NCBI GenBank assembly: GCA_009835395.1
Contig: VXXM01000073.1
Coordinates: 82 to 64,081, forward strand
DNA from: Acidimicrobiia bacterium
GTDB lineage: Bacteria; Actinomycetota; Acidimicrobiia; Acidimicrobiales; CATQHL01
DNA length: 64,000 nucleotides
Reading direction: 5' to 3'
Below the pieces are notes generated by a model that worked only from the letters and a program-made list of their open reading frames with translations, was not told where the DNA came from and searched no databases. Shown here piece after piece: positions 14,764 through 32,007 of this stretch. Numbering within the stretch: position 1 is the stretch's first letter; each line of letters opens with the position of its first letter. Made by a program: the position numbers and the translations under genes.

Positions 14764-14780
14764 GCACACCGGTCCTGTCG

Positions 14781-15939: not shown

Positions 15940-17619
15940 TCAGGGCTCCCAGAGGAGCGTGTCGGGCCTGAATTGGCTCCAGGCGAACCAGAACGCCTGA
16001 TGGCCTTCGATCTCGACGCCGGCGGCGTCGACGGCGCGCACGCCGCCTCCGTCGAGGCGGAGGCTGACGCCGGCAAGTTCCACCGTTCGGCCGGACTCGA
16101 GCGCGGCGACCGCTGCGTCCACCGGGAAGGCGACGGGGGTGCCGTCGTCGAGGACCACGCCGAAGACCTGTTCGTGCACGGTCAGGCGCCCGTCCAGGTC
16201 ACCGATCGGGAAGATGGGCCCGTCATCGTCCCGGCCGCGCAGTGGGTCGAGGGGGTAGTTGTGGCCGATCCCGCCGTCCCGGGCGACGATCGTCGTCTCC
16301 GGGTGTGCAGCCTTCCACTCACCCCAGGTGGTGGTAACGACGGTCGCCTGGTTCAGGACCACTCCCTTCTCGCGGAGCGGACCCGAGACCGCCTCGCCGG
16401 TGAATGTGTCGAACACCGACTTGGTAACGAGGTCGTACATGACCTTGTTCGACCGTGAGAGCAGCCCGGAGGTCCTGAGCACGGGCGTCTCGACGCCGGG
16501 GGGAACGTCGTCGGTGAAATAGGCCTGGGCGGAGCCGCACAGCGTGCAGTAGGGGAAGCCGATCCGGCGCCCGCCGAGCGTGTCGTTGACCATCTCGTGG
16601 ATTTCCATGAAGTTCTTCGGGTATGCCCGGGCTTCGCCGCCGATCACGACGGCGAAGACGACGCGGTCGTCGGGATACCAGGCGCCTCCGGCGGCGTCGG
16701 TGACCGGGGGGTCGTCGCGGGCCGGGATGCAGCCCCGGACACACCGCTCCGGGTCGCCGAGCGGGCGGTCGTCGATCCGCACGCCCCCCCAACTCACGAG
16801 TCGCCAGTCGATGTTGGCGTCACGATCGTCGAAGAATGGCTGCCAGCCCGGCTCCACCAGCGTGAACAGCCGCTCCTTGTAGTCGACGTAACCCTCGAAG
16901 GCGGGCAGATCCCAGGCGATCAGGTGATCGGTGACCGATTGCCACGGGCTGCGGGCTGCCACGGGGTCATCGGCCAGGCTCACACCCGTCAAGGTCTCGA
17001 AGGTGGACACCGCCGCCTCGTGGACCTCGCCGTAGTAGAAGAACCGGAGGAGGTCGGAGAGGATCCAGCCCAGCCGGGCATCCCCGGACTCGCCGAGCGC
17101 ACTGAGCGCGGCGAGGTCGACCTCGGTGGTCATGGTGGACCAGACGGTCTCGAGGTCGCCGGCCGCCGTCTGCCCGAGTGGGCCGACCGGCACCTCGGGC
17201 GAGGGCGGGAACTCGTAACCGCGGAAGTTTCGCAGGGTGGCGCTTTCGATCGGGTGCAAGCCGGCTCCATCCGGCTCCGGGGGGCCGTCAGCGGTCTCCT
17301 GCACCTCGGCGACCGATCCGGCGCCGTTGGCCGGCTCCAACTCGACGACATCCTCGGCGCCACCGGCCGGCGGGGCCGGGATGGCGACCGGATCGGAGCC
17401 GTCGGGGTCAGGCGCTGCATCGGGGGCGGGCACGTCCTCCGAATCCGAGCCTGCGGCGGGCGGCGGATCAGCAGCGGGGGGAGCCGGCATGTCACCGCCC
17501 CCGGCCCCCGGCTCAGCCGACGGCGCGGCGCGACCGGCCGGCTGCTCATCGGCTCCCGAACAGGCGGCGGCCAGGAACACGAACCCAACCAGCACGATGC
17601 AGACACGCCGCACGAACAC
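15940..17619 (-). CDS. Secreted lipoprotein with C-terminal DUF3179 domain
   Basis: 559 aa. Signal peptide + lipobox-like FLAAAC, then an acidic Pro/Ala-rich linker. C-terminal part carries DUF3179 hallmarks (ARAYPKNFMEIHEMVND, YCTLCGS, TSGLLSRSNKVMYD). Confidence 0.7.
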   Translation of the reverse strand: MFVRRVCIVLVGFVFLAAACSGADEQPAGRAAPSAEPGAGGGDMPAPPAADPPPAAGSDSEDVPAPDAAPDPDGSDPVAIPAPPAGGAEDVVELEPANGAGSVAEVQETADGPPEPDGAGLHPIESATLRNFRGYEFPPSPEVPVGPLGQTAAGDLETVWSTMTTEVDLAALSALGESGDARLGWILSDLLRFFYYGEVHEAAVSTFETLTGVSLADDPVAARSPWQSVTDHLIAWDLPAFEGYVDYKERLFTLVEPGWQPFFDDRDANIDWRLVSWGGVRIDDRPLGDPERCVRGCIPARDDPPVTDAAGGAWYPDDRVVFAVVIGGEARAYPKNFMEIHEMVNDTLGGRRIGFPYCTLCGSAQAYFTDDVPPGVETPVLRTSGLLSRSNKVMYDLVTKSVFDTFTGEAVSGPLREKGVVLNQATVVTTTWGEWKAAHPETTIVARDGGIGHNYPLDPLRGRDDDGPIFPIGDLDGRLTVHEQVFGVVLDDGTPVAFPVDAAVAALESGRTVELAGVSLRLDGGGVRAVDAAGVEIEGHQAFWFAWSQFRPDTLLWEP

Positions 17620-17780
17620 GACGCCACGTTAGGGGCTGCGGGCCACGGCGACGGCGCACGGAACGCGTGGCGCAGCAGCCTCCTAGGACCGTGCTGAGTA
17701 ATCCACGGGCAGCGCCGGTCGGCTGGCCAGGTCCTGGATTCCGGCCTGCGCCGGAATGACGTGTCGGGGCGTCGGGAGCA

Positions 17781-18932
17781 TTACTCAGCAGCCTCGTAGG
17801 CCGGCTTCCGGGCCAGGAAGCAGTACAAGGGCGTGAAGATCCCTGCCTTCCCCCCGCTGACATACGCCTCAGCCGATCGATTCATGAGGCCGATGACCTT
17901 GGCCGAACCCCGCGGGAAGACTCGCACGATCTCCGCCAACCTGATCACTTCCTGAACGGCTCTGCGGCCCGCCGGGACGCGGACGAGCGCACGGTGCCAA
18001 CCCCCGTAGCGGCCCTCCATGGGCGCGTACCAGGGAACCTCGCCGACATTCCTGTCCGTGGCCTCCAGAACCTCGAATCCGGCCGACTCGAGCGCCTGAT
18101 TGACATCTGCGAAGGTGGGGATCTCCTTCAACACGATGTACCGCATGAGGTCCTGCTTGATGGACTGGTGTTCGGTGGAGGTCGGATCGAAATCGTCGGT
18201 CAGGCACATTTCCTGGCCCCAGAACAGCGCGCCGGGCCGCAGGAGGCGGAAGATCTCCGCGAATGCCTCCACCCGGTCGGGGGCATAGCACGTCGACTCA
18301 ATGGCATAGCCCCTGTCGAATGAGGCAGCCTCGATGCTGCTCATATCCATGATGTTGGACTTGAGGCAGTCCACCTTCCCATCCAGGCCGGCTTCGCGAT
18401 TGCGAACTCTGACCTGCTCGAGTTGGTGATCGTTGTTGTTGATACCAACCACGCTGACGCCTGCCTCCGCTGCAAGACGGCGCATCAGTGCGCCGAATCC
18501 GCACCCCACATCGACAACCTGCATCCCCTCCTGAAGCCTCAGCTTGTCGATCATCACCCGCTGGTGCCGAGCAATGGCCTGCGCCAACGTCTCGTCGTGC
18601 GCCAAGGGCGCAAACTGCAACGATTCACTCCAGCCGAACAACATGAATCTGTTGCAGAGGTCGTAATAGTCATTGACTGTTGTGGTGTGATCGTAGGCTG
18701 GGGAATCCGCGTGGCCGGCGCTGGAACGCTCGATCCAGCTCTCGATGTCCGCCACGACTGCCGGGACATCCCGGTCTCGATACGCGGCGCGCAGGGAACC
18801 GGCGAGCCCGCCGGGCGCCATCAACGACCTGCTCGCACGTCGGAGTACGGGATCACTAAAGCCGGTATTCTTCGCGAGGGATGCCAACGATGTCAATCCG
18901 GCCCACCGAGCCCGCCAACGCCCTGTCGCCAC
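17781..18932 (-). CDS. Sterol 24-C-methyltransferase (ERG6/SMT1) family SAM-dependent methyltransferase
   Basis: Three SMT signature regions: YYDLCNRFMLFGWSESLQFAP (region I, cf. YEYGWG.SFHFA); VDVGCGFGALMRR (SAM site); YAIESTCYAPD (cf. YAIEATCHAP). The C-terminal Sterol_MT_C-like tail ends GIFTPLYCFLARKP (cf. IFTPMYFFVARKP). Start uncertain: GTG 18932 has GGAG abutting it, and ATG 18821 is a plausible alternative. Confidence 0.8.
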   Translation of the reverse strand: MATGRWRARWAGLTSLASLAKNTGFSDPVLRRASRSLMAPGGLAGSLRAAYRDRDVPAVVADIESWIERSSAGHADSPAYDHTTTVNDYYDLCNRFMLFGWSESLQFAPLAHDETLAQAIARHQRVMIDKLRLQEGMQVVDVGCGFGALMRRLAAEAGVSVVGINNNDHQLEQVRVRNREAGLDGKVDCLKSNIMDMSSIEAASFDRGYAIESTCYAPDRVEAFAEIFRLLRPGALFWGQEMCLTDDFDPTSTEHQSIKQDLMRYIVLKEIPTFADVNQALESAGFEVLEATDRNVGEVPWYAPMEGRYGGWHRALVRVPAGRRAVQEVIRLAEIVRVFPRGSAKVIGLMNRSAEAYVSGGKAGIFTPLYCFLARKPAYEAAE

Positions 18933-19987
18933 CTCCTTTCCCCGAGGGCTGGTACTTCCTCGCGAGCCGACGAGCCGTGGAGAAGGCGAAGCTCATACAG
19001 AAGACCTGGATGGGCGAGAGCATCATCATCTGGTGCGACGACGACGGACGCATCTGCGTAGCCGAGTCCCATTGCCCGCACCTCGGCGCGGATCTGGGGC
19101 CCGAAGCGGGCGGGCGTGTCTGCGACGGCCGGCTCGTCTGCCCGTTCCACGGCTTCGAGTACGACACCGGCGGCCAGTGCGTGGCCACTCCCTTCGCGCC
19201 CGCACCGAAGGCCGCCCGACTGCGGGTCTTCGAGACGACCGAAGTCCTAGGCCTCATCTTCGCCTGGTGGGGAATCGGAGGACGGCCGCCGCAATGGAAC
19301 CTGCACCCCGACCCGCTGGACCAGACCGGCTGGAGCAGCCTCAGCATCCAGACCCTCCGCTTTCCCGGCCATCCTCAGGAGACGGCCGAGAACGCCGTCG
19401 ACCTGGCCCACTTCCGCTACGTCCACGGCTACCACAACGTGAGTCGCATCAAGCCTGTGTCCGTGGACGGGCACTGTCTCCTGAGCCGGTTCGACTTCGC
19501 GAGCAAGCGCACGATCGCAGGATTCCCGTACTTGACGCTCAATATGACCGCCACCACCCACGTCTGGGGGCTCGGCTGCTCGTTCGTCGAGGTCCGCGAG
19601 CACTCGACGCCCTTCGACATGCGCTTCTGGGTCCTGGCGACGCCGGTCGACGGAGAACTCATCGACTTGTCGCTGGTCACGCAGGTGGGGGGGATGAGCG
19701 ACCCGAAGCGCCGGATCGCAGGCCTGGGATTCCTCCCGGTCCCGCTGCGTGCGCGCGTCATGAACCGGATTCTGACTCCCATGCAGAAGCGGGACGTCCT
19801 GCAGGACGTGAAGATCTGGAGCCGCAAGCAGCACCTGCGCCGCCCGCGCCTGGCCCGTTCCGACGGCGAGATCATGCGGTACCGGGCCTATTGCCGCCAG
19901 TTCTACCCCGCCCCGCCCGGTGGTAACCACAACGACAAGGGTGATCACGAGGCCCGCGAGAAGGCCCGCGAGTCCCAGCTGCAGTAG
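18890..19987 (+). CDS. Rieske [2Fe-2S] non-heme-iron oxygenase, KshA/Neverland-like
   Basis: Rieske motif CPHLG...x17...CPFHGF. Mononuclear-iron motif ENAVDLAHFRYVHG. KshA-family C-terminal DVKIWSRKQ. ATG 18890 sits 9 nt after GAGGG; track start 18881 is also possible. Divergent from the methyltransferase. Confidence 0.85.
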   Translation: MSIRPTEPANALSPPPFPEGWYFLASRRAVEKAKLIQKTWMGESIIIWCDDDGRICVAESHCPHLGADLGPEAGGRVCDGRLVCPFHGFEYDTGGQCVATPFAPAPKAARLRVFETTEVLGLIFAWWGIGGRPPQWNLHPDPLDQTGWSSLSIQTLRFPGHPQETAENAVDLAHFRYVHGYHNVSRIKPVSVDGHCLLSRFDFASKRTIAGFPYLTLNMTATTHVWGLGCSFVEVREHSTPFDMRFWVLATPVDGELIDLSLVTQVGGMSDPKRRIAGLGFLPVPLRARVMNRILTPMQKRDVLQDVKIWSRKQHLRRPRLARSDGEIMRYRAYCRQFYPAPPGGNHNDKGDHEAREKARESQLQ

Positions 19988-20079
19988 CCGGACCCGCCCA
20001 TAGTACGCGTTATGTCGTAGACGACCGGTCCCGCGGTGTGTCCCGGGGCTTCAACGGGCGTCAGGTACAGTCGTCTGGC

Positions 20080-22560
20080 ATGAACCGCCTGCTGGATAGG
20101 TTCAGCCGGTTAGTCACGGCCCGCCCGTGGATCACGATCGGTGTCCTAGTACTCATCACTGTTGTGCTGGCCATGGGGGCGACGCGACGGGCGCCCCCGA
20201 CGGAGGGGGCGTCGGTGGCACTGCTCCCGCCCGGCAACGCCGTCGCCGAAGCGGTGGCCGACATCGACGAACTCTTCGGGGATCACAGCGATGTGAATAC
20301 CGTGACGCTGGTCTTCCGCGGCGAGGTGCTCACACCCGGCGGGCTCTCCCAGATGGACGCCCTCCTCGACGACATCCTCGCCGAGCCGGGCGTGGCGCCG
20401 CTCCTGGCGCCGTCCGATCCGATCGTGGCGCCCAGTTCGCTGGTGGGGTTCGTACTCGGCACCGACGACCTCTCGTCGATCACACAGGCGGAGATCGACT
20501 CGGTGCGCGGCCTCCCGGAGATCGGTGCGGCGCTCAACGCCCTGACCGGCAACGACACGGACGGCACCCCGGTCGGGATCGCCAACATCCGCCTGCTCGA
20601 CACGGGCGACGAACGAGTCCTCGACATCGAACGGCGGATCGACGATCTGGCGCTGGCCGCCGAGGGCCCGCTGCGGGTGACCAGCGTCTCGACGGCGGTC
20701 GTCGAGGACGAGTACACGGAGGCCACCGAGTCGGGGATGGTGCCGCTGATCGGGATCGCGCTGCTGCTGATCGCGGCGCTGATCATGCTCTTCATGCGGA
20801 CGCTCTCGGATCTGCTGCTCACGCTGGCGGGACTCCTGTTCTCGGTGATCTGGATCGTCGGGCTCGAGGGCTGGCTCGGGCCGGAGGCGCTGGGGTGGAT
20901 CGGTCCGCCGAGCTCGCTCTCGACGATGGTGCCGATCATCATGATCAGCCTCACGGTGGACTACGCCATCCAGGCCATCTCGCACTACCGCGAGCAGCGC
21001 ACCGAGGGTCTCCCCGTGCTGCAGGCGATCCGGACGGGGCTGCGAAACGTCGCCGTACCGCTGGTGCTGGCCGCCGTCACGACGATCGCCAGCTTCCTGG
21101 CCAACCTGTTCTCACCGATATCGACGATCGCCGACTTCGGCATCATTGCGGGCCTCGGCGTGGGACTGAGCCTGCTCGTGATGCTGACGCTGATTCCGGC
21201 CGGGCGGACGATCATCGACCGGCGCCGCGAGGCACGCGGCAAGCTCAAGGAGCCCCGCCCGATCTCCGCGGCGCTGCCCGGCATCGGACGGGCGGCGGAA
21301 GTCATCGGGGCAGGGGTGGCGCGCCGTCCCGCGCCCTACCTCATCGCCGTGGTCGGCATAACGATCTGGATGGGTTTCTCGGCCACCGGACTCAAGTCGG
21401 AGTTCACCATCCGCGACATCCTGCCCCGGGGCGGGACCGCGCTGAACGACCTGGAGACGCTCGACGCGGCCGTCGGCGGCTCGACGCAACTGGCCAGCGT
21501 GCTCGTGACGGCCGAGGCCACCGAGACCCGCACGCTCCTCAACCTGCAGGATCTGGAGGCCGCCTTCGCGGACGAGCAGCGCCGCCCGGCGGCGGCGGCG
21601 GGACCGCTGGAGGCATCGTACGAGTCGCTCGTGGCCGACTGGACCCACGACAGCGGCGAGCCCGGCGACAACTACGACCCGGAACTCGCCGCGCTCTACT
21701 ACGAGGCCGCGGCGGAGGTGCAACTGGATCCGGTGCTGATGCAGGAACTCCTGGACAGGCTCGGGGAGAGGGAACCCGCCCTCGGGCGCGCCCTGGTCAA
21801 CAACCGGGACGGCACTGATGCGCTCCTGCTCCAGTTCTCGAGCTACACGGACGATCCGGCGGCGACCGCCGTGATCCAGGAGGACATCGAGGCGCTCTGG
21901 TCCGGCGATGACGACGCCATCACGGCCACGTCGGAGGCCATCCTGGCCGTCGAGGTCACCGACCAGATCACGGCCCGGCAGACCGAGGCGATCAGCACGA
22001 CCATCGCCATCGCCCTCGGCATCCTCGCCCTCTTCTTCTGGGTGACGCTGCGCCGGCCCACGCTGGGGATCATCGCGGTCGGACCGATCGTGCTAGTGCT
22101 CATCTGGGTACTGGGCACGATGGCCCTGCTGGGCATCCCCTACACACTGATCACCTCGATCATCACGGCGCTATCCATCGGTATCGGCGTGGACTACACC
22201 ATCCACGTGATCCATCGCTACCGCGAGGAGTTCTCCCGGGTGCGCAACCCGGAGAAGGCCGCGATCCGGACGCTCGCCACCACTGGCTCGGCGCTGCTGG
22301 GATCCGCGCTGACGACGGCCTTCGGGTTCGGCGTGCTGGTGTTCTCGCCGGTCGCGGGGACCCAGCAGTTCGGCATCACCGCGGCGATCACGATCGCCTA
22401 CTCGCTGCTGGTCGCCATCCTGGTGGTGCCGCCGGCCATGACCGTCTGGGGCGCCTACGAGAACGCGCGCCTCCGCTCGACGGTGCAGCGCCTGTGGGAC
22501 GACCTCGACGTGGCCGCCGAGGAGATCCAGCGCCGCCACGAGGAGGAGGGCGCCACGTAG
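20080..22560 (+). CDS. MMPL/HpnN-like RND-superfamily lipid transporter (paralogue 1)
   Basis: About 826 aa from ATG 20080 (MNRLLDRFSRLV; track ORF starts 14 codons earlier). Two 6-TM bundles, each ending in ..VDYAIQAISHYREQ / GVDYTIHVIHRYREE, plus two large extracytoplasmic domains. Confidence 0.8.
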   Translation: MNRLLDRFSRLVTARPWITIGVLVLITVVLAMGATRRAPPTEGASVALLPPGNAVAEAVADIDELFGDHSDVNTVTLVFRGEVLTPGGLSQMDALLDDILAEPGVAPLLAPSDPIVAPSSLVGFVLGTDDLSSITQAEIDSVRGLPEIGAALNALTGNDTDGTPVGIANIRLLDTGDERVLDIERRIDDLALAAEGPLRVTSVSTAVVEDEYTEATESGMVPLIGIALLLIAALIMLFMRTLSDLLLTLAGLLFSVIWIVGLEGWLGPEALGWIGPPSSLSTMVPIIMISLTVDYAIQAISHYREQRTEGLPVLQAIRTGLRNVAVPLVLAAVTTIASFLANLFSPISTIADFGIIAGLGVGLSLLVMLTLIPAGRTIIDRRREARGKLKEPRPISAALPGIGRAAEVIGAGVARRPAPYLIAVVGITIWMGFSATGLKSEFTIRDILPRGGTALNDLETLDAAVGGSTQLASVLVTAEATETRTLLNLQDLEAAFADEQRRPAAAAGPLEASYESLVADWTHDSGEPGDNYDPELAALYYEAAAEVQLDPVLMQELLDRLGEREPALGRALVNNRDGTDALLLQFSSYTDDPAATAVIQEDIEALWSGDDDAITATSEAILAVEVTDQITARQTEAISTTIAIALGILALFFWVTLRRPTLGIIAVGPIVLVLIWVLGTMALLGIPYTLITSIITALSIGIGVDYTIHVIHRYREEFSRVRNPEKAAIRTLATTGSALLGSALTTAFGFGVLVFSPVAGTQQFGITAAITIAYSLLVAILVVPPAMTVWGAYENARLRSTVQRLWDDLDVAAEEIQRRHEEEGAT

Positions 22561-22602
22561 CGGCGTGGTGAGCAGACCCGCCTCGGCGGGGGTGCGGCGC
22601 CC

Positions 22603-24633
22603 TCAGACGGGCAATTCGTGCCGCCGCTCGACGATCTTGAACTTCAGCTTCTTGCTCGGCGACATCGACGGGACCGGGTCGATCTTGAACTTGTAGTTCT
22701 TCGGGGCGATCTCGAGGGTGAAGTGGTGGACGATCAACAGCAGGTTGAGCGCCAACTGCATCTCGGTCCAGCGAGAACCGAGACAGACGTGCGTGCCCAG
22801 CCCGTAGGGGGAGTACCCGATTCCGAGGTGTTCCTTGCGCGGCGGCTTGTAGCGGTCGATGTCGAACTTGAACGGGTCGGGGAAGAGATCGCCCATGTAG
22901 TGCGTGGCCGTCTGGACGATGAAGACCCGTGCGCCCTCGGGCAGTTCGTAGCCCTCGACGACGGTGGCGTTCATCACGTTCCGTATCGACATCGGAACGA
23001 TCGGGTACATGCGCATGGACTCCATGATGACGCGGCGCGTCACGTCGGTGGCGGGCCCGTTGACGGTCTCGTGGTCAGGATCGCCGTCCGCGAACAGGGC
23101 GTCCGCCTCGGCGCGGACCTGGTCGTAGAGCTCCGGCCGCGACAGCATCGCGTGGAGGATGAAGCTGAGCTGATCGCCCACGTACATGCTGGCGATCAGC
23201 GGCGCCGACAGCACGAAACGCAGATTCGACTCCGGGAGCAGCTGGCAATCGTTGGCGTGCATGGTCAATAGATCGTCGGCGAGGTCACGGGGGCAGCCGG
23301 CGCGCTGGGCGGGCGTGTGGACTCGCTGAACCCGCTCGACCACCTCGTCGATCAGTCTCGCCCGACGCTTCATGGCCGGGGTCTGCAGCATGAATTTGGG
23401 CATGGTCCGGCCGATGTGGGTCTTGAGCGCCCGTTCCTTGAACTTGTGCAGATCGTCGACGACATCCTGCGAATCGATGCTGACCGCCAGCGGCGACATT
23501 TCCGAGTTGACCAGCTTCCTGCACATGGGCACGGCGGAGCGGCTCTCGCCGACGCTCCAGGTCGCCATGTGCCGGCGCGCATGGCCGCAGAACGTGCTCA
23601 ACTCGGCCTCGAGCCTGGTGCGGGAGTACGCCGGCTGGATGGTCTTGCGATAGCGGAAGTGATCGGCCCCGTCGAGGGTGGGCAGGATTCCCGACCCGCC
23701 GTAGACCTTCTCGAACTCCTCCAGATAGTCCCGGGCTCGCAGGTACATGCGCCCGTGACGATGCACCCAGCGATTCGTCCGGGGCCCGCAGAGGAAGATC
23801 ATGCGTTGAACGAACGGCACCTTGATCTGGAACACCGGCCCGTACTCCCCGGCGAGACTCGCAAAGAGTGCCGGCAGGTTCCCACTGCGCACATGCCGGT
23901 TGCGCAGCAGCTTGAGGAGCGACACAACGGGGATCGCCTTGGCGAAAGTGGACCGTCGGAGCAAGGGGCCGGCAACGCTGTCCGTGATCGCATCGGCGAT
24001 CGCCCGGCCGATCAAATCGATTTTGCAGAGTTGCTCGACGCGCGCCGCGGCTTCGTCGTCGAGTTGGAATATGAGGCGCAGGACGTCGCACGCATTGGTG
24101 AGGCTGATGATGATCGCATCGCCCGGATCGGGAAGCTCCTCTCCGAATATGGCCCTGCTGATACGGGTCTTGACGAACTCGGCGGCTGTCTCATCATCGG
24201 CCTGACCGCGGAGGTTCGCCTGCCAGCCCGCACGAGCCAGTGTCCAGAACCCGCCGTCGTGGTGTTCCAGCACCTTGAGCAACACCAGCCGTTCCAGGGT
24301 CGCGTCGATGATCGACTCGCCGCGGATCGCCAGCCGTTCGACCCAGTACTGGGCGTTGTGTCGAACCGGCTCGGCTGCAATCTTCTCCAGGATGGGATCG
24401 AGGGCGGGATCGCCCGTCGGTGTCTCGTCCAGGAGGATCAGAGATTCGACGTCGGTGTCGATGCGCGATCGCAACGACAACTCCCCCAGCGCGGCGCCGA
24501 CGACCGCGCAGTTCAGATCCCAGCCGGGTACCTGATGGAAATAGCCGGCCTCCTCGTTGAGGAGCGTCAGGAGGAACTCGTCGACCAGACTTAGCGTTTT
24601 GGTCGGCGCGGCGGCGCCTGTGGCGGAACTCAT
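22603..24633 (-). CDS. Fusion protein: N-terminal GPP34/GOLPH3-like domain + C-terminal cytochrome P450
   Basis: 676 aa from ATG 24633 (GGAGAA upstream; the track ORF extends 44 codons further). The N-terminal ~215 aa follow the GPP34 pattern (LSLVDEFLLTLLNEEAG..., DLNCAVVGAALGELSL, PTGDPALDPIL, PDPGDAIIISLTNACDVL). The P450 part has EXXR (ESMRMYP), PERF-like FPDPFKFDIDRY and the heme loop YGLGTHVCLG (Cys codon 22783..22785). Confidence 0.8.
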   Translation of the reverse strand: MSSATGAAAPTKTLSLVDEFLLTLLNEEAGYFHQVPGWDLNCAVVGAALGELSLRSRIDTDVESLILLDETPTGDPALDPILEKIAAEPVRHNAQYWVERLAIRGESIIDATLERLVLLKVLEHHDGGFWTLARAGWQANLRGQADDETAAEFVKTRISRAIFGEELPDPGDAIIISLTNACDVLRLIFQLDDEAAARVEQLCKIDLIGRAIADAITDSVAGPLLRRSTFAKAIPVVSLLKLLRNRHVRSGNLPALFASLAGEYGPVFQIKVPFVQRMIFLCGPRTNRWVHRHGRMYLRARDYLEEFEKVYGGSGILPTLDGADHFRYRKTIQPAYSRTRLEAELSTFCGHARRHMATWSVGESRSAVPMCRKLVNSEMSPLAVSIDSQDVVDDLHKFKERALKTHIGRTMPKFMLQTPAMKRRARLIDEVVERVQRVHTPAQRAGCPRDLADDLLTMHANDCQLLPESNLRFVLSAPLIASMYVGDQLSFILHAMLSRPELYDQVRAEADALFADGDPDHETVNGPATDVTRRVIMESMRMYPIVPMSIRNVMNATVVEGYELPEGARVFIVQTATHYMGDLFPDPFKFDIDRYKPPRKEHLGIGYSPYGLGTHVCLGSRWTEMQLALNLLLIVHHFTLEIAPKNYKFKIDPVPSMSPSKKLKFKIVERRHELPV

Positions 24634-24859
24634 CAGAGTTGTTCTCCGTACACCATCCCACTGCCCCCGTCGTGTGAGGGTCGGGCAACTCGGACAGTGT
24701 ACTTTCTTTCTGCTCACGCGAACCATCGCTTCGACTCCTAGTGGGCCGCGGACGGACTCGTCCATGCCGCCGTCGCCTGAAGGACCCCGGTCGGGAGGGG
24801 TTCCAGCGGCCGTTGCTAGCCTGATCCGTCGCGGCCCCGGCGTTCTGCGGGGCCCCGGC

Positions 24860-24936
24860 GGGGCTGTAGCTCAGTTGGCTAGAGCACTTGCTTTGCAAGC
24901 AAGGGGTCGTGGGTTCGAGTCCCATCAGCTCCACCA
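24860..24936 (+). tRNA. tRNA-Ala (anticodon TGC), CCA encoded
   Basis: Manual cloverleaf. Acceptor GGGGCTG/CAGCTCC with the G3:U70 alanine identity pair. Anticodon loop cTTTGCAa, T-loop TTCGAGT, 3' ACCA. Confidence 0.9.
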
Positions 24937-24951
24937 CAGGGAGAAGCCGTG

Positions 24952-25497
24952 ATGCTCAGGATCTTCCAAAACACCGCGATCGCAAGCGGGATCGCCGTCG
25001 CCGCGTTGATCGTCGCTCTGATCGCCCTGTTTTCGCCCCTCCGGGAATCGTCATCGCGGGGCGACGGTCCCGACCCGGTCACCGTCGGAGTGCCCCAGCA
25101 GCCGGCGGAAACCGTCGCCTTCGTTCAGGAGGCTCTGGACTTCTACGACTCCGAGGGGCGCCAGGCCACCATCGACCACTACAACTCCCCGGACAGCGCC
25201 GACGGCCAGAACTACCTGTTCATCCTCGACGAGGACGGCGTCCTCGTCGCACATCTCAACCAGGATCTCCTGGGCAGGGACGTGCACACCAGCTTCGGCG
25301 TCGACGTGGACGGCAACCGCTTCGGTCTCTTGATGCTGGAGGCGACCTCCGAGGGGATGTGGATCGACTACGTCTACCTCAACCCGCACACCGGGTTCCG
25401 GGAACTGAAACACTCCTGGGTCGTCGGTCACGACGGGCTGGTCTTCGGCTCGGGGTGGTACGAACTGCAGCGGCCGTCCATCGTGGAGTTCGTCTAG
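24952..25497 (+). CDS. Membrane-anchored single-Cache (sCache_2-like) domain protein without output domain
   Basis: N-terminal TM (IASGIAVAALIVALIALF), then a Cache-like core (NYLFILDEDGVLVAHLNQDLLGRD ... WIDYVYLNPHTG ... KHSWVVGHDGLVFGSGWY). ATG 24952 sits 5 nt after GGGAGAAG; the track lists GTG 24949. Confidence 0.6.
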   Translation: MLRIFQNTAIASGIAVAALIVALIALFSPLRESSSRGDGPDPVTVGVPQQPAETVAFVQEALDFYDSEGRQATIDHYNSPDSADGQNYLFILDEDGVLVAHLNQDLLGRDVHTSFGVDVDGNRFGLLMLEATSEGMWIDYVYLNPHTGFRELKHSWVVGHDGLVFGSGWYELQRPSIVEFV

Positions 25498-25532
25498 GAG
25501 ACGCCGTCCGCCTACAGGCGCGCAGCGGCAAG

Positions 25533-25556
25533 CGGGCGGGTTGGAGAGCCCGCCCG
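25533..25556 (+). terminator. GC-rich hairpin downstream of the Cache gene (possible intrinsic terminator)
   Basis: CGGGCGGG-ttggagag-CCCGCCCG, an 8-bp perfect stem with an 8-nt loop. No clear U-tract. Confidence 0.4.
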
Positions 25557-25600
25557 GGTCTGGCAGGATCAGCGAAGAGAGATGCAGGAAGGAAGCGACC

Positions 25601-27040
25601 ATGATCGATGCGCTGAATCAGCTCGGGGAGTTGCTCCTCGACGGTGACGCCCCGCATGCCAACGGCAAGCTGGACGTGTTCGATCCGACCACAGGCGACC
25701 TGATCGCCGGCGTCGCCACGTCCATGGTGGATGACTGCCTGGCGGCCGTGGAGACGGCGGAACAGGCGGCCGGCGGCTGGGCGGCCGCGCCGCCGCGCGA
25801 GCGGGCCGAGATCTTGCGTCGCTGCTACGAGACGATGATGGCCGAACAGGCCCAGATCGCCGCGCTGCTGCAACTCGAGAACGGCAAGCCCATGGCCGAG
25901 GCCCTCGGTGAGGTGGCGTACGCGGCCGACTTCTTCCGCTGGTTCAGCGAGGAGGCGGTGCGCATCGCCGGGGAGGTGCGCCGCGCGCCGATGGGCGACA
26001 AGCGCATCATCGTGCTGCCCGAGCCGGTGGGGGTCTCCCTGCAGATCACGCCCTGGAACTTCCCCGCCGCCATGCCGGTACGAAAGATCGCACCGGCGCT
26101 CGCTGCGGGATGCACCACCATCGTGAAACCGGCACCGGCCACACCGCTGACCGCCTATTACATCGCCGATCTGATGGAACGCTGCGGCACACCGGTGGGC
26201 GTGGTCAACCTGGTGCTCCCCGAACCGCCGAATGAGGCCACGGTGGCGATGCTGGCGCACCGGGCCGTGCACAAGGTGTCCTTCACCGGCTCGATAGCGG
26301 TCGGCAAGCACCTGCTGCGCCTCGCCGCCGACCGGGTGCTGCGAACCAGCATGGAGTTGGGCGGCAACGCCCCGTTCGTGGTGCTGGCCGACGCCGACGT
26401 GGAGGTGGCCACCGAGGCCGCCATCGCCGCCAAGATGCGCAACACCGGCGCCACGTGCGTTGCTCCGAACCGGCTGTACGTGCACGAGAGGGTCGCCGAC
26501 GACTTCACCGAGGCGCTCAGCGCCCGCATGGCCGGCCTCACCGTCGGTTATGACCGGCAGCCCGACGCCCAGGTCGGCGCGCTGATCAGCACCCGCGAGC
26601 GCGAGAAGGTGGCCGGTCTTGTGACCTCAGCCGTGGACCGCGGCGCCAAGGTGGTGACCGGCGGGCGGGCGCCGGACTGCGGCGGCTATTTCTACGAGCC
26701 GACCGTGCTGGCCGACGTCGAGCCGGACGCGCCCATCCTGGCCAGGGAGATCTTCGGGCCGGTGGCGCCCCTGGTGCGCTTCCGGGATGAGGCCCGCGCG
26801 ATCGAGATGGCCAACGACACCGACGCCGGGTTGATCGCCTACGTCATGAGCGGCGACATGGGCCATGGTCTGACCGTCGGCGAGCAACTCGATGCGGGCA
26901 TGGTCGCCGTGAACAGGGGCATCATCTCCGATGCGTCGGCCCCGTTCGGGGGTGTCAAGGAGAGCGGCATTGGCCGCGAGGGAGGCTTCGAGGGGATCGA
27001 GGAGTACCTCGAACGCAAATACGTGGCGAGCAACTGGTAG
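25601..27040 (+). CDS. gabD: NAD(P)-dependent succinate-semialdehyde-type aldehyde dehydrogenase
   Basis: 479 aa from ATG 25601 (GGAAGGAAG upstream). ALDH motifs ITPWNFP, IVKPAP.TP, MELGGNAP and the catalytic Cys in NTGATCVAPNR. The gabD assignment is family-level only. Confidence 0.8.
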   Translation: MIDALNQLGELLLDGDAPHANGKLDVFDPTTGDLIAGVATSMVDDCLAAVETAEQAAGGWAAAPPRERAEILRRCYETMMAEQAQIAALLQLENGKPMAEALGEVAYAADFFRWFSEEAVRIAGEVRRAPMGDKRIIVLPEPVGVSLQITPWNFPAAMPVRKIAPALAAGCTTIVKPAPATPLTAYYIADLMERCGTPVGVVNLVLPEPPNEATVAMLAHRAVHKVSFTGSIAVGKHLLRLAADRVLRTSMELGGNAPFVVLADADVEVATEAAIAAKMRNTGATCVAPNRLYVHERVADDFTEALSARMAGLTVGYDRQPDAQVGALISTREREKVAGLVTSAVDRGAKVVTGGRAPDCGGYFYEPTVLADVEPDAPILAREIFGPVAPLVRFRDEARAIEMANDTDAGLIAYVMSGDMGHGLTVGEQLDAGMVAVNRGIISDASAPFGGVKESGIGREGGFEGIEEYLERKYVASNW

Positions 27041-27116
27041 AAGATCTGTCGTCGCGGCAATACACGGCAAACCTGAAGTAACGTCAGGACGCGCTGTGCA
27101 AGGACGATCTTCGAGC

Positions 27117-28295
27117 ATGAAACTCCCCACCGACTACGACCACCCGGGTGTTGCGCGGGCCCGAGTTCTCGAGCCCGAGATGGTCGAGAACTATCTGGCG
27201 CACACCCTGGTCGGGGACCCCGTGGCCGACGCCGCTGTCGAGGCGCTCGCCGCGCTGGACCGCGGGCGGTCGAGCCGGCTGATCGCGGCGTTCGTCAACA
27301 GCAGCGGCTCCGACACCTGGCCCGACGCACCGCCGGCGGTGCGGGAACTCTTCGTGGACGCCACGACGCCGCCCGATTGGCTTGACCTGCCGGCCCTCGC
27401 GCCCGGCGTGCGTATGTTCCACCGGAACACCAAGTTGGTGCTGGCCTCGATGGTGGCGGCCGTCTTGGTGGAGGGCTTCGCGTCGAACATCAGCCAGTCC
27501 TTCTTCATCACGGGACGCCTGCGCGACCAGGGGGTTCGCCGGCTGCAGCAGAACAACCGGCACATGGTGGAGATCTTCTTCCCGGACGGGATGGAGAGCT
27601 ACGGCGACGGCTGGAAGCTGTCGGTGCGGATCCGGCTCGTGCACGCCCACGTCAGGCGGCTGCTCGCCAACTCCGAGGACTGGGATACCCCGGCGTGGGG
27701 GGTCCCGCTGAGCGCCGCGCACGTCGGCTACGCCATCACGGCGTTCTCGGCGAGGCTCCTCGTACACATTCGAAGCCTCGGAGCCAGCTTCAGCGCCGAG
27801 GAGGCGGCCAGCTTCATGGCCACCTGGCGCTACTCCGGGCATCTGATGGGAGTGCCGGACTCCATCCTCTACCGCGACGAGGCCGAGGCGCTTCGACTCT
27901 TCGCCGTGGGCGGGCTGTGCGAACCGGAACCCGACGATGCGTCCATCGCCCTGGCGAACGCCCTGGTTAACTCCGCCCCCCTGGTTGTGGGGATCGACGA
28001 TCCGGTCGAGCGGCGGAATCTGGCCAAATACGTCTACAAGGTCTCGCGCGCCATGATCGGCCACGACCTCGCCGACAAGCTCCGCTACCCCAAGCAGTCC
28101 AGCTTCGGCGTGCTGGGTTGGTTCCGCTTCCAATCCCGCTACGACCGGCTCCTGAAGCGCTGCCGCCCGAAGTACGAACGCCGGAACAACTTCACGAGCT
28201 TCACGACCCTGCTGTCGGGTTCGAGATACGACGACGAGGGCATCACCTACCGGATGCCCGACCACGTCTACGCCGAGCGCTCCAACAACTGGTAG
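27117..28295 (+). CDS. MpaB/DUF2236-family oxygenase (rubber-oxygenase/Lcp-related fold)
   Basis: 392 aa from ATG 27117 (MKLPTDYD). Conserved core WKLSVRIRLVHAHVRRLL and W..P.WG.PL..AH, characteristic of DUF2236. Confidence 0.65.
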   Translation: MKLPTDYDHPGVARARVLEPEMVENYLAHTLVGDPVADAAVEALAALDRGRSSRLIAAFVNSSGSDTWPDAPPAVRELFVDATTPPDWLDLPALAPGVRMFHRNTKLVLASMVAAVLVEGFASNISQSFFITGRLRDQGVRRLQQNNRHMVEIFFPDGMESYGDGWKLSVRIRLVHAHVRRLLANSEDWDTPAWGVPLSAAHVGYAITAFSARLLVHIRSLGASFSAEEAASFMATWRYSGHLMGVPDSILYRDEAEALRLFAVGGLCEPEPDDASIALANALVNSAPLVVGIDDPVERRNLAKYVYKVSRAMIGHDLADKLRYPKQSSFGVLGWFRFQSRYDRLLKRCRPKYERRNNFTSFTTLLSGSRYDDEGITYRMPDHVYAERSNNW

Positions 28296-29504
28296 ATGGG
28301 CGACGACGAATCCGGGGGGCGTCACGGCGTCGGGCCCGCGGCGACCTCGGCAACCGATTTCCTGGGAATCGACTCGCTGCTGAACGAGGAGCAGTTGCTG
28401 CTGCGGGACACGGTGCGCCGCTGGGTGGCCGAGCGGATCCTGCCAGAGGTCGGAGATTGGTTCGAGCGGGGGGTCTTCCCGGCCGAGACGATCGGACCCG
28501 AGCTGGGTGCTCTGGGTCTACTGGGCATGCACCTCGAGGGCTACGGCTGCGCCGGGGCCGGCGCCACCGACTACGGCCTGGCGTGCATGGAGCTGGAGGC
28601 CGGGGACTCAGGCGTGCGCAGCTTCATGAGCGTGCAGGGTTCGCTGGCGATGTTCCCGATCCGCGCCTTCGGCAGCGAGGAGCAGCGGCGGCAGTGGCTG
28701 CCCGCCATGTCCGCCGGCGAGGCGATCGGCTGCTTCGGCCTGACCGAGCCCGACGCCGGCAGTGACCCGGCAAGCATGCGGACCCGGGCGCGCCGCGACG
28801 GCTCCGACTGGATCCTCAACGGCACCAAGATGTGGATCACGAACGGCTCGATCGCCCATGTCGCGGTCGTGTGGGCGCAGACCGCCGACGGCGTGCGGGG
28901 GTTCGTCGTGCCGACCGAGGTGCCGGGCTTCGGTGCTCGCGACATTCCCCGCAAGCTCTCACTGCGCGCCTCGGTGACGTCTGAACTGGTGCTGGAGGAT
29001 GTGCGCCTGCCCGCCGACGCGGTCCTGCCGGAAGTTGTCGGCATGCGGGGGCCGCTGTCGTGCCTAAACGAAGCCCGCTTCGGAATCCTCTTCGGCGCCG
29101 TCGGCGCGGCCCGCGCCTGCTATGAGGCGGCGCTGGGCTACGCGACCGAGCGCGACGCCTTCGGTGGGCCCATCAGTCGCTTTCAACTCACCCAGCAGAA
29201 GCTGGTCGAGATGATGATCGCCGTCCAGCGGGGCACCTTGCTGGCGCTGCACCTCGGGCGGCTGCGCGACGCCGGACAACTCAGTGCCGCGCAGATCAGC
29301 GTCGGCAAGCTCGACAACGTGCGCATGGCCCTGGAGGTGGCCCGCAGCGCCCGCGGCGTGCTGGGCGCCAACGGCATCACGCTCGAGTACCCGGTGATCA
29401 GGCACATGAACAACCTCGAGTCGGTCTACACCTACGAGGGCACCCACGAGATCCACACCCTCATCCTCGGCCAGGCGCTCACCGGGCGGTCCGCCTTCGC
29501 CTGA
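28296..29504 (+). CDS. Acyl-CoA dehydrogenase, glutaryl-CoA dehydrogenase-like
   Basis: 402 aa. GCFGLTEPDAGSDP, WITNG, and C-terminal YEGTHEIHTLILGQALTG, typical of the GCDH subfamily. Confidence 0.85.
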   Translation: MGDDESGGRHGVGPAATSATDFLGIDSLLNEEQLLLRDTVRRWVAERILPEVGDWFERGVFPAETIGPELGALGLLGMHLEGYGCAGAGATDYGLACMELEAGDSGVRSFMSVQGSLAMFPIRAFGSEEQRRQWLPAMSAGEAIGCFGLTEPDAGSDPASMRTRARRDGSDWILNGTKMWITNGSIAHVAVVWAQTADGVRGFVVPTEVPGFGARDIPRKLSLRASVTSELVLEDVRLPADAVLPEVVGMRGPLSCLNEARFGILFGAVGAARACYEAALGYATERDAFGGPISRFQLTQQKLVEMMIAVQRGTLLALHLGRLRDAGQLSAAQISVGKLDNVRMALEVARSARGVLGANGITLEYPVIRHMNNLESVYTYEGTHEIHTLILGQALTGRSAFA

Positions 29505-29544
29505 TCACCACCACCGCGCCCGCCCCCGGAACTAGCGTCACAGC

Positions 29545-32007
29545 ATGTTCGGTTGGCAGGCCCGGATCATCCAGAAGTCGCCGAAACGGGTGCTGGCGGC
29601 ATTGGGAGCAGTGACGCTCGCCCTGCTCGCCGGCGTCCTGGTGCAGGATCCGCCCGAGGGCCCCATCGACTCCACCAGCATCTTCCTGCCCTCCGGCAGT
29701 GACCTGGCGGCGGCGACCGACGTCATCAGGGAGAGCTTTCCCGCGGCTGCCGACCTGCGGGTGGTCCAGATCCTCGCCAAGGGCGACGTCCTGGCGGCGG
29801 ACTCGCTACGGGCGATCAACGACCTGCAGATCGCCATCAGCAGCGATCCCGCTATTCAGCCGTTCCTGGTCGCCGAACCCCTCTACGGCTATGTCCAACT
29901 CATCGAACTGGCGGCCGCCGAGGCGGGCCTGTCCCTGACGACCATCACCGACACCCAGGTCTCCCTGGGCCTGGCTCAACTGGCGGGCGATCCGCAACGG
30001 GCAGAACTGCACGACCTGCTGCAGCGCTTCATCGCGCGAGACGCAACCGGGGAGCCGATGGCGGGGCTCTCCCTGGTCATCCTGGACGACGCCGGCGACG
30101 CGCTCGGGCAGGAGCAGGCGCAATTGCGCGCTCACGAGATCGCCGAGTCCGCCGACACCAGCGCGCTGGACACTTCGATCATCACCTTGGCGCAGAGCGA
30201 CATCGAGGCCAAGGAGGCGCGAGACCGGAACCTCATCGTGGTCACCCTCATCGCCCTGGCCGTGATCGTGGTGCTCCTGGCCGTCTTCTACCGAACCCAG
30301 TCCGACGTCCACATCACCATGGCGGGCCTCGGCATGACGATCCTGTGGATGCTCGGCGCGCAGGCCTGGCTGTCACCCGGCGGTGCCGGCATCGTGGACC
30401 CGGACAACATCCTGCTGACGCTGATACCCGTCCTGCTGATCAGCCTGGCGGTGGACTACGCGCTGCAGATCACCGGCCGCTACCGGGAGGCGCTGCGCGA
30501 CGACGCCGAACGGGCGCCCGACGCCTCGGGCCGGGCCATCGCACGCTCCGTGCGGCTCTGCGGCGTGCCGGTGCTGCTGGCAGCGGGCACGACCGCCGTC
30601 AGCCTGCTCGCCAACCTGACGAGCCGCTTCAAGCCCATTGCCGAGTTCGGCATCATCGCCAGCATCGGTGTCGTCTCGGGCTGGATCGTGATGACCAGCT
30701 TCGTCCCGGCCGCCCGCCTGACGCTGGACCGGTGGCGCGCCACCAAGGGCCGGGAGCCGGCGGTCCAGCCCATAGCCGACACGATTCCCGGCGCTGCGGC
30801 CGCCCTCCCCCGCATCGCCGCGATCGTGGTGCGCCGGCCGCTCCCGGTTCTCGCCGCCGCCATCGCCGTCACGGTCCTGGCCGTCGTGGCCGCCACCAAC
30901 CTCAGCACGACGTTCGCGGTGAAGGACTTCCTGCCGCGGGACTCCGAGGTGGCGGAGAACTTCGACTACCTGGACGAGAACTTCGACGGGAGCGCCACCT
31001 TGATGACGGTGCTCATCGAGACCGATCTCAGCAGTGGTCGGGCGGTTCGTGACCTCAGCGACCTCCACACGGTCCTCGTCGACCCGGCCCGGCGCCCCGA
31101 CGGCATCATCGGACCTCCCCTGTCCTCGGCCGGGACGCTCCTCGCCGAACGGACCGACGATGAGGCTGCCGTCGCCGATGCCTTCGCCGAACTGCGCAGC
31201 GACGTGACGGCGGCCGAGGGGGACGTCCGGCGCGCGTGGGCACTGCTCGAAGGTGTCGACGCCGCCGGCTTCGCCGAGGTCCTCGACTTCCGGGCCGACG
31301 GCCCCGACCGCACCATCATCCAGATACCGGTTGCGGTGGAGAGCAACGAGGCGCTGCAGGAGTTGATCGAGGAGATCGAGGCGCTGTGGGGCGGTGGCGC
31401 CTCGGAGATCACCGTCACGGGAGGAGACGCGCTCATCGCTCTGATCACCGACGAGTTGGCGGCCAGCCAGGTCTCGAGCGTGAGCCTCGTCGTCGCCGCC
31501 GCGCTGGCGATCCTCATCCTCTACTTCGGCCTCCGCGAGCGCCGCCCGCTGCTCGGGCTGATCACGATCCTGCCGATCATCGTGACCCTGGCCTGGCTGC
31601 TTGGCGCCATGTGGCTGTTCGGGATCTCCTACAACATGAGCACCGCCCTCATGGTGGTGCTCACGATCGGGATCGGGGTCGACTACACCATCCACCTCAC
31701 GCACCGCTTCCTGGAGGAGCACCGGGAATCGCCACAGGTCCCCGAGGCATTGCGGCGGGCGATGGTCACCACCGGCGGGGCGCTCCTGGGCAGCGCACTC
31801 ACCACGGCGCTTGGCCTCCTGATGCTGGTGTTCTCCCCGCTGCGGCCGATGCAGGAACTGGGCATCCTCGCCGCCGTCACGATCCTGCTGGGGCTCATCG
31901 CCACCTTCACCGTGCTGCCGCCGCTGCTGGTGCTGTGGTCGCGCTACCACCGCTGGCGCGGTCGCGAAGCCGGAACGCCGAGCCGGCCGGCGAGCACTAC
32001 CGCCTAG
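29545..32007 (+). CDS. MMPL/HpnN-like RND-superfamily lipid transporter (paralogue 2)
   Basis: 820 aa. Same two-bundle architecture as 20080..22560 (SLAVDYALQITGRYRE / GIGVDYTIHLTHRFLEE). Confidence 0.8.
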   Translation: MFGWQARIIQKSPKRVLAALGAVTLALLAGVLVQDPPEGPIDSTSIFLPSGSDLAAATDVIRESFPAAADLRVVQILAKGDVLAADSLRAINDLQIAISSDPAIQPFLVAEPLYGYVQLIELAAAEAGLSLTTITDTQVSLGLAQLAGDPQRAELHDLLQRFIARDATGEPMAGLSLVILDDAGDALGQEQAQLRAHEIAESADTSALDTSIITLAQSDIEAKEARDRNLIVVTLIALAVIVVLLAVFYRTQSDVHITMAGLGMTILWMLGAQAWLSPGGAGIVDPDNILLTLIPVLLISLAVDYALQITGRYREALRDDAERAPDASGRAIARSVRLCGVPVLLAAGTTAVSLLANLTSRFKPIAEFGIIASIGVVSGWIVMTSFVPAARLTLDRWRATKGREPAVQPIADTIPGAAAALPRIAAIVVRRPLPVLAAAIAVTVLAVVAATNLSTTFAVKDFLPRDSEVAENFDYLDENFDGSATLMTVLIETDLSSGRAVRDLSDLHTVLVDPARRPDGIIGPPLSSAGTLLAERTDDEAAVADAFAELRSDVTAAEGDVRRAWALLEGVDAAGFAEVLDFRADGPDRTIIQIPVAVESNEALQELIEEIEALWGGGASEITVTGGDALIALITDELAASQVSSVSLVVAAALAILILYFGLRERRPLLGLITILPIIVTLAWLLGAMWLFGISYNMSTALMVVLTIGIGVDYTIHLTHRFLEEHRESPQVPEALRRAMVTTGGALLGSALTTALGLLMLVFSPLRPMQELGILAAVTILLGLIATFTVLPPLLVLWSRYHRWRGREAGTPSRPASTTA

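Follow-up and report, generated by a model that had tools for sequence, protein, structure and literature searches.

We analysed a stretch of 64,000 nucleotides from an Acidimicrobiia bacterium (contig VXXM01000073.1 of assembly GCA_009835395.1, positions 82 to 64,081; hereafter the window), which carries four adjacent genes for a sterol methyltransferase (SMT)-family protein, a Rieske oxygenase, a resistance-nodulation-division (RND) transporter and a fusion of a GPP34 domain with a cytochrome P450. From comparison with other genomes we consider it probable that this cassette is an accessory sterol-tailoring and export module, which has been exchanged across phyla among sponge-living bacteria (with one case from a coral). 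A sequence-only reading of the window had already proposed a sterol/isoprenoid-lipid tailoring and transport system. The comparative context bears out this core idea, whereas the arguments then drawn from G+C content, tRNA adjacency, methyltransferase signature regions and an SdmA-like Rieske oxygenase proved weak or wrong.

The cassette is laid out as follows (window positions; domains from Pfam):

17781..18932, minus strand: open reading frame (ORF) of the SMT-family methyltransferase, with CMAS/Methyltransf_11 and Sterol_MT_C (56.3 bits, cut-off 21.7)
17781..18821, minus strand: likely gene of the type-B SMT (see below), 346 amino acids (aa) from M38, with the Sterol_MT_C tail
18881..19987, plus strand: ORF of the Rieske protein, with Rieske (61 bits) and KshA_C (81.6 bits)
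18890..19987, plus strand: likely gene of the KshA_C-type Rieske non-haem iron oxygenase, 365 aa
20038..22560, plus strand: ORF of the RND protein, with MMPL (149 bits) and Sterol-sensing/Patched sterol-sensing domain (SSD; 55 bits)
20080..22560, plus strand: likely gene of the MMPL/HAE3-type RND transporter with SSD, 826 aa, 2x6 transmembrane (TM) segments
22603..24765, minus strand: ORF of the GPP34-P450, with GPP34 (PF05719, 101 bits) and p450 (PF00067, 137 bits) in one frame
22603..24630, minus strand: likely gene of the fusion (675 aa) of an N-terminal, GOLPH3-like GPP34 domain with a cytochrome P450
22603-23940, minus strand: P450 domain of the fusion
18867..18896, minus strand: sigma-70-like promoter match, TTGACA-18-AAGAAT (10/12), upstream of the SMT M38 start

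ORF listing and profile searches thus confirmed the four adjacent genes and the domains that had been predicted for them, including the P450 that carries a GPP34 domain. The true starts are likely at 18821 (SMT), 18890 (Rieske), 20080 (RND) and 24630 (P450). These choices are based on the gene calls for the orthologues on the contig of a close relative (L001, about 93% DNA identity over the cassette), on homologue lengths (341-346 aa for the SMT) and on the promoter-like site in the SMT/Rieske spacer. The promoter search gave two sites where 0.8 are expected, and the one in this divergent spacer is a consensus match only. According to hydropathy the RND protein has the usual 2x6 TM layout, and TM-like or signal-like segments are absent from the SMT, the Rieske protein and the GPP34-P450. 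A search of the 64-kb window revealed no oxidosqualene cyclase (OSC), squalene monooxygenase (SMO), CYP51, ERG24, SdmA/B or canonical SMT, in agreement with the earlier observation that cyclase and squalene epoxidase are missing from it.

The conservation of the arrangement was followed in a genome scan with the SMT, in which one genome per species was considered. At least 598 species carried a relative, and the best 80 loci were analysed. These loci contain two types of SMT: type A adjoins the cyclase and type B, to which the window protein belongs, adjoins the GPP34-P450. The best 80 span Acidimicrobiales, Dehalococcoidia/Chloroflexota, Alpha- and Gammaproteobacteria, Nitrospirota, Nitrospinota, Binatia, Gemmatimonadota, Latescibacterota, Thermodesulfobacteriota, Rhodothermaceae, Dadabacteria and Poriferihabitaceae, i.e. 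more than 10 phyla overall, and many of the bins bear names typical of sponge studies. For counting neighbours all ORFs of the loci were clustered, shadow ORFs were removed and only the 66 loci with full 10-kb flanks, all from different species, were used. Within 10 kb of the type-B SMT a GPP34-P450 was present in 55/66 loci, an RND pump in 47 and the Rieske oxygenase in 40, followed by a flavin adenine dinucleotide (FAD) amine-oxidase-like protein in 21 and ERG4/ERG24 reductases in 8. The window SMT was 55-60% identical to its best-80 relatives whatever their phylum, the mean within type B being 67%. Co-location of the cassette genes, for which the sequence-only reading had suggested looking in related genomes, is thus found there and across many phyla. 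This supports the view that the cluster is a conserved and, judging from its distribution, horizontally spread module of sponge bacteria (plus one coral) as far as sampled.

The transporter varies between lineages in a regular way. The pump is of the MMPL type in Acidimicrobiales and Chloroflexota, and elsewhere its place is taken by a different MMPL/SSD RND protein or by a tripartite HlyD/AcrB/OMF system, such that the pump type follows the envelope type. The exchange of the pump protein with retention of its function indicates that transport belongs to the module. For the window protein the MMPL and SSD domains of the predicted MMPL/HpnN-type transporter were found, but the match did not reach the level of the HpnN equivalogs: NCBIfam scores were 128 and 79 for HpnN (cut-offs 752 and 1100), 225 for HAE3 (cut-off 352) and 51 for BstA (cut-off 1400), with HpnN being the best match in the PDB. 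On these scores the cassette RND is classed as a member of the superfamily and not of the HpnN, BstA or HAE3 families. It shares with HpnN, BstA and MmpL the RND/MMPL fold and a sterol-sensing-type domain, and, like theirs, its gene is clustered with the lipid pathway that it would serve. The differences from HpnN and BstA lie in the scores far below the equivalog cut-offs, in the BstB/BstC partners, which were not seen, and in the other RND types of the diderm symbionts.

A second scan, of Joint Genome Institute (JGI) metagenomes, was anchored on the GPP34-P450. Its best 80 loci, many of them on short contigs, contained the Rieske oxygenase in 37 cases, the type-B SMT in 25, the FAD protein in 20 and an RND pump in about 47 (three types summed, such that a few loci may be counted twice). 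All contig series that could be assigned among these 80 are sponge metagenomes; the MKWU series was attributed to A. aerophoba solely through a near-duplicate locus. The FAD amine-oxidase-like oxidoreductase (family c9, 460 aa) is a frequent fifth member that is missing from the window. Its gene is often found flanked by the two SMT types; the protein was seen in L011, L029, L033, L037, L049, L050 and others, and it could be a side-chain reductase or desaturase.

A connection to sterols comes from loci in which the module is contiguous with core sterol synthesis genes. In L050 and L072 (Nitrospira), L053 (Binatia) and L134 (A. aerophoba metagenome) it adjoins SdmB, SdmA, an ERG24-type reductase, a CYP51-like P450 and an SMO-OSC fusion, for which scores of 737 bits (osq_cycl), about 410 (SdmA) and about 300 (SdmB) were obtained; partial core sets are found in L055, L012 and L065. 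Locus L055 is the contig called 'Nitrospira sp., coral reef' in Brown et al. 2023; its gene order matches and its published gene numbering agrees one-to-one with our ORF map. A search with the cyclase placed SMO-OSC fusions on contigs that have exactly the lengths of three Acidimicrobiales-type chromosomes with a window-type SMT (3,528,285, 2,951,365 and 3,724,546 bp), and the position was confirmed for the first. There the cassette is syntenic and its SMT 90% identical to that of the window; the cyclase, at about 650 kb, is separated from the cassette by about 1.1 Mb and has an ERG2-like gene in its vicinity. Given the SMO-OSC fusion on their chromosomes, the close relatives are very probably sterol producers. 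The module may thus be an accessory that stands beside the core pathway or apart from it. SMO and OSC are fused in many symbiont genomes into a protein of about 1114-1146 aa (L050:2181-5621, L072:4360-8022, L053:15427-19236, L164:10001-13345), and the best 120 database matches to this fusion share 78% identity or more with the query, irrespective of phylum.

We propose the following working of the module. The sterol would be supplied by the bacterium's own squalene-monooxygenase/oxidosqualene-cyclase pathway, with the host as another possible source, and would be modified by three soluble or membrane-peripheral enzymes. The type-B SMT would alkylate a side-chain olefin, probably not that of desmosterol or 24-methylenecholesterol, and the KshA-type Rieske oxygenase would hydroxylate or desaturate the sterol. 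In the fusion the GOLPH3-like domain may dock the P450 to the membrane or to a lipid substrate, instead of binding phosphatidylinositol 4-phosphate (PI4P). The RND pump with its SSD would then take the product out of the cytoplasmic membrane, in the direction of the cell surface or of the host. With conserved Rieske and iron ligands, haem cysteine and S-adenosylmethionine (SAM) motif (GxGxG, kept in the type-B SMTs) the enzymes look functional.

The methyltransferase has a class I SAM-dependent core (Methyltransf_11/25 and a DVGCGFG motif) and the predicted Sterol_MT_C tail (PF08498). Its best Pfam match is the CMAS family, and a search of the PDB matched no solved SMT template, only generic methyltransferases and cyclopropane-fatty-acid (CFA) synthases. 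Type B is on average 34% identical to ERG6 and 39% to type A; with the type-A SMT of L055 the window SMT shares 42% identity. According to the preprint of Brown and Welander (10.64898/2025.12.19.695621), 25 residues are common to all functional SMTs, including Region I, Y74 and T78, while H90, D125, G129, P133 and E195 are essential in yeast ERG6, and H90 and P133 were retained in every SMT tested there. Type A keeps nearly all residues reported as conserved in functional SMTs and corresponds to Brown's '1 of 2' enzymes, the makers of 24-alkyl sterols. Compared with functional SMTs, the window protein reads GWSESLQF instead of GWGxxFHF (84-91) in Region I and DVGCGFGAL instead of DxGxGxxGP in Region II. 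The changes are T78N, Y81M, G86S, F89L, H90Q, G132A and P133L (ERG6 numbering), with the ERG6-essential D125, G129 and E195 being kept. H90Q, G132A and P133L are shared by the window protein and each of the 6 other Acidimicrobiales-type sequences. Other type-B sequences mostly keep H, G and P (66/81, with A132 in 7 and Y90 in 1), and the hallmark of the whole family is S/N78, M81, L89 and I249.

By these residues the window methyltransferase is a divergent type-B SMT paralog and not a canonical SMT. The earlier assignment to ERG6/SMT1 with all three signature regions is correct for the family, to which the Sterol_MT_C tail and the SAM core attest, but fails for Regions I and II. Type B includes Brown's 'Nitrospira 2 of 2' enzyme (L055:9992-11026, gene 2682229270) and probably the A. 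aerophoba '2 of 2' gene, which is 35% identical to ERG6; both were assayed by Brown et al. 2023 (PMC10070321). Metagenome surveys should not take the paralog family, with its at least 598 species, as a sign of C-24 methylation. In comparisons within Acidimicrobiales, with L007 and L008 respectively, the window SMT is 74% and 69% identical, the Rieske protein 75% and 83%, the P450 domain 85% and 90% and the RND protein 86% and 94%. The divergence of the SMT relative to its neighbours suggests that the methyltransferase alone evolved faster or was replaced.

The deviations of type B from the 25 residues of functional SMTs, and of this lineage also from H90 and P133, leave room for a substrate other than sterol: type-B methyltransferase and oxygenases could modify isoprenoid lipids, hopanoid-like ones among them, or else act on unsaturated acyl chains in the manner of CFA/UfaM-type enzymes, and the RND pump would export the products. 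The CMAS family as best Pfam match fits this explanation, as do MMPL/HpnN-type pumps, which carry many lipid classes. The frequent partner c9 also belongs to a kind that is paired with CFA-type methylases; in fatty-acid modification such FAD amine-oxidase-like proteins accompany a CFA-type methylase in the pairs UfaM/UfaD and BfaA/BfaB. However, type B has kept the Sterol_MT_C tail (56 bits) and shares 39-42% identity with functional type-A SMTs, and the pump carries a sterol-sensing domain. In addition, OSC clusters and ERG4/ERG24 reductases repeatedly adjoin the module, and the relatives have the SMO-OSC fusion. We regard a non-sterol lipid as an unlikely substrate.

The Rieske oxygenase carries the 2Fe-2S ligands C65, H67, C87 and H90 and the iron ligands H177, H182 and D309 (numbering of the 368-aa ORF from 18881), all of which are conserved in 45 family members. 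Its assignment as a KshA-type oxygenase stands, with Rieske and KshA_C domains, conserved ligands and KshA as the best match in the PDB (phmmer, E 2e-26, 96 bits, residues 13-202 only). Its placement in the SdmA class, in contrast, was rejected. Against the SdmA model NF052579 it reaches 32 bits at a cut-off of 600, while the true SdmA genes in L072, L055 and L053 reach 408-415 bits, which is under the curated cut-off and far above the window Rieske. It is only 24% identical to SdmA and coexists with a true SdmA in L053 and L055. With the C-4 demethylase SdmA/SdmB it has in common that SdmA is also a Rieske oxygenase of bacterial sterol clusters. The Rieske family of KshA has a further branch in Neverland/DAF-36.

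A KshA-like oxygenase next to a P450 could also start the degradation of host sterols that enter via the MMPL protein, similar to the breakdown of cholesterol in actinobacteria. Holert et al. 2018 (PMC5790920) describe a KshA cluster that is confined to metagenome-assembled genomes (MAGs) from sponges and read it as steroid catabolism, and aldehyde dehydrogenase, acyl-CoA dehydrogenase and MpaB/Lcp oxygenase genes lie just downstream of the cassette in this lineage. The window Rieske may belong to that sponge-only clade (cluster IV). As for the KshA/KshB system itself, Rieske and KshA_C domains as well as the Fe-S and Fe ligands are common to both, but the phmmer match is partial, there is no adjacent KshB-type reductase and the context is biosynthetic rather than catabolic. 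In 80 loci the conserved neighbour families included no KstD, HsaA-D or KshB-like family and no other 9,10-seco gene context, ferredoxins below 90 aa being unscreened. The 9,10-seco pathway has no step for a SAM methyltransferase, and the module is joined to biosynthetic OSC, CYP51-like and SdmAB genes in several phyla. RND/MMPL proteins are, moreover, exporters as a rule. Scavenging or degradation of steroids is in our view quite unlikely.

The P450 domain contains the haem cysteine motif YGLGTHVCLG and the ExxR motif. In the I-helix, where canonical P450 monooxygenases have A-G-x-[DE]-T-[TS], ASMYVG aligns with AGHHTS of M. capsulatus CYP51, such that the acid/Thr pair is missing, and Y483 is invariant across the GPP34-P450 family. 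The acid-alcohol pair of the I-helix is used for O2 activation. Its absence together with the invariant tyrosine hints at a non-standard O2 activation or a non-monooxygenase reaction. The best solved matches are taxadiene hydroxylase (CYP725) and M. capsulatus CYP51 (E about 1e-23 to 1e-21), and the domain is distant from all. An identity as CYP51 was rejected on account of the I-helix motif, the distant PDB matches and an identity of 23% to the CYP51-like P450 encoded in the clusters. Diverged tandem or nearby duplicates of the GPP34-P450 gene occur in L084, L085, L087, L090, L015, L116, L142 and L143.

For the GPP34 domain phmmer matches to the PDB were too weak to align the PI4P pocket, and a profile alignment to human GOLPH3 was used instead (hhalign, probability 96.6%). 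Eukaryotic GOLPH3 binds PI4P, and studies of GOLPH3 and Vps74 from 2009 reportedly placed the pocket at W81, R90, R171 and R174 (human numbering). In our alignment W81 corresponds to the invariant W37, and the three arginines are lost, R90 being replaced by V/A, R171 by E and R174 by I.

These residues bear on the function that was proposed for the fusion by Ferreira et al. 2025 (PMC11706023). There the GPP34-P450 (GPP34_L) is described as exclusive to sponge symbionts of about 16-20 phyla, and PI4P binding and phagosome evasion are put forward; methyltransferases or steroids are never mentioned, and the flanks considered were those of the short GPP34 form only. With the same two-domain build and habitat restriction, the window protein belongs to this group. 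As a host-directed effector it would be released into sponge cells and bind phagosomal PI4P to block maturation, with neighbours that are unrelated or indirectly anti-phagocytic. Besides the exclusive occurrence in sponge symbionts, the sponge origin of all assignable contig series in the best 80 loci anchored on the fusion and the PI4P binding of the eukaryotic protein fit this proposal, and exported modified sterols could affect phagocytosis too, such that the two ideas can overlap. We consider an effector very unlikely, given that 3/4 of the PI4P-pocket residues are non-basic in the fusion family, that the protein has neither signal peptide nor TM segment, that a P450 needs haem, O2 and bacterial redox partners, and that there is tight linkage of the gene with sterol clusters and with cytoplasmic enzymes dependent on SAM or Fe-S, a context unexamined in that study.

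Several points weigh against a sterol-tailoring and export module. The functions of all four proteins rest on domains and context, and the direction of RND transport (export rather than uptake) is an assumption based on how the family behaves. The cassette showed no ferredoxin or reductase partner, with ferredoxins below 90 aa unscreened. Only about 8/66 loci lie physically beside core sterol genes, and the OSC is shown for relatives and not for the window's own genome. Type B lacks residues that are conserved in all functional SMTs, such that its substrate might not be a sterol. From this violation we infer that the assayed type-B enzymes were inactive on desmosterol and 24-methylenecholesterol. 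The replacement of H90 and P133 in the Acidimicrobiales lineage could mean loss or change of activity. We read it as altered chemistry or an altered substrate and not as decay, since the SMT gene, with 69-98% identity inside the lineage, is clearly constrained. Finally, the residue comparisons depend on the reference sequences: the ERG6 numbering agrees with every motif position in the preprint, and GOLPH3 agrees with PDB alignments at residues 59-157 and 239-275, a check that did not extend to the stretch 158-238, which holds R171 and R174.

Bacterial sterol clusters with SMTs have been described from the same habitat and taxa and with the same SMT family (PMC10070321; the 'CSGs' of Kelly et al. 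2022, PMC9531527). In L050, L072, L053, L055 and L134 the module is physically joined to the core described there (SdmB, SdmA, ERG24, CYP51-like P450, SMO-OSC). In the available parts of these two papers, GPP34-P450, KshA-type Rieske oxygenase, FAD oxidoreductase and RND pumps are not named as members of the clusters. In contrast to them, the window holds an accessory module without the core, and its SMT is of type B and not of the 24-alkyl-sterol type. The GPP34_L proposal differs in turn from the present arrangement, in which the fusion sits with SMT-family, Rieske, RND and sterol synthesis genes and the PI4P-pocket arginines are not conserved. In the library searched no paper linked GPP34 with a sterol methyltransferase, and broader searches returned nothing closer. 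The statement that the gene combination had not been described as a system therefore appears to hold for the linkage, while its parts had been published separately (SMTs in 2022-23, GPP34-P450 in 2025). The module and its implication for the GPP34-P450 appear to be undescribed.

Beyond sterol tailoring and export as such, we tentatively suggest a more specific role, which we regard as possible rather than probable: the module could be the genetic basis of an unconventional sterol that is made and exported by the symbiont, with the GPP34-P450 being a sterol enzyme and not a PI4P-binding effector. The type-B SMT, with its altered Region I and, in this lineage, without the H90 base, would then alkylate a position or substrate that is foreign to canonical SMTs. 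For example, a Delta-25 sterol such as (epi)codisterol could be converted to 26-methyl, aplysterol-type side chains, or a cyclopropyl product could arise. The Rieske oxygenase and the Thr-less P450 might add further sponge-type modifications. The module thereby offers candidate enzymes for unexplained sponge sterol modifications. If the suggestion is true, part of the 'sponge' sterol repertoire that is used as Neoproterozoic animal biomarkers would be bacterial. Two hitherto unconnected lines meet here, namely the debate on a possible bacterial origin of side-chain-alkylated 'sponge' steranes and the recently identified GPP34-P450 as a hallmark of sponge symbiosis. The linkage of the fusion with an SMT paralog, a KshA-type oxygenase, a lipid pump and OSC clusters, together with the lost arginines, provides a testable alternative function for it.

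The surroundings of the cassette in the window comprise the following further features:

15940-17619: DUF3179 protein, 559 aa, between the exonuclease VII/ELFV genes and the SMT, a position kept in L001
24860..24936, plus strand: tRNA-Ala(TGC), adjoining the cassette
24949..32007, plus strand: neighbours past the tRNA (Pfam), namely sCache_2, aldehyde dehydrogenase, MpaB/Lcp-type oxygenase (of an isoprenoid-cleaving family), acyl-CoA dehydrogenase and a second MMPL/SSD RND
29545-32007, plus strand: this second MMPL/SSD RND, 34% identical to the cassette RND
56096-62216: origin region with jag, yidC, dnaA (59465-60889) and dnaN (61122-62216)

The cassette had been described as a cluster of lower G+C content. 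This is correct for the SMT (62.8%) and the GPP34-P450 (63.8%), which lie about 2-2.5 standard deviations under the window mean of 69.7% (standard deviation 2.8, 44 genes), but not for the Rieske (67.1%) and RND (69.1%) genes, which are ordinary for the window. The core gene dnaA in the same window is as low, with 63.2%. In synonymous codon usage only the SMT is somewhat atypical (rank 6/44), with the P450, Rieske and RND genes ranking at 21, 33 and 35. The G+C dip as a sign of horizontal acquisition is therefore weak, being matched by dnaA and accompanied by a codon signal in the SMT only, and we rejected G+C or codon bias as proof of horizontal transfer. The adjacency to the tRNA-Ala gene was confirmed and is found in 8/8 Acidimicrobiales-type loci checked; an att-like direct repeat of the tRNA end flanking the cassette was not found. 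Since the adjacency is kept in the lineage and such a repeat is missing, it is not evidence of a recent insertion, and a recently inserted island at tRNA-Ala was rejected.

Judging from yidC, jag, dnaA and dnaN and from the minimum of the cumulative GC skew near 60-61 kb of the window, the cassette lies about 35-40 kb from the replication origin. The window comes from an Acidimicrobiales symbiont of sponges, and its nearest relatives are sponge Acidimicrobiales MAGs and metagenome contigs (an Ircinia bin, a 142-kb sponge-metagenome scaffold and others), in which the cassette DNA is 86-93% identical. In a comparison of window positions 13000-30000 with L001/L004 the cassette DNA was 93.1% identical and the flanks only 83.9% and 86.4%. 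This gap reflects either stronger selection on the cassette or exchange among related strains.

Past the tRNA, an MpaB gene is present with the cassette in every Acidimicrobiales-type locus, and it adjoins the cassette in L001, L004-L008, L088 and L136. The run 24949-32007 could be a linked lipid-processing unit, for which synteny within the lineage is observed.

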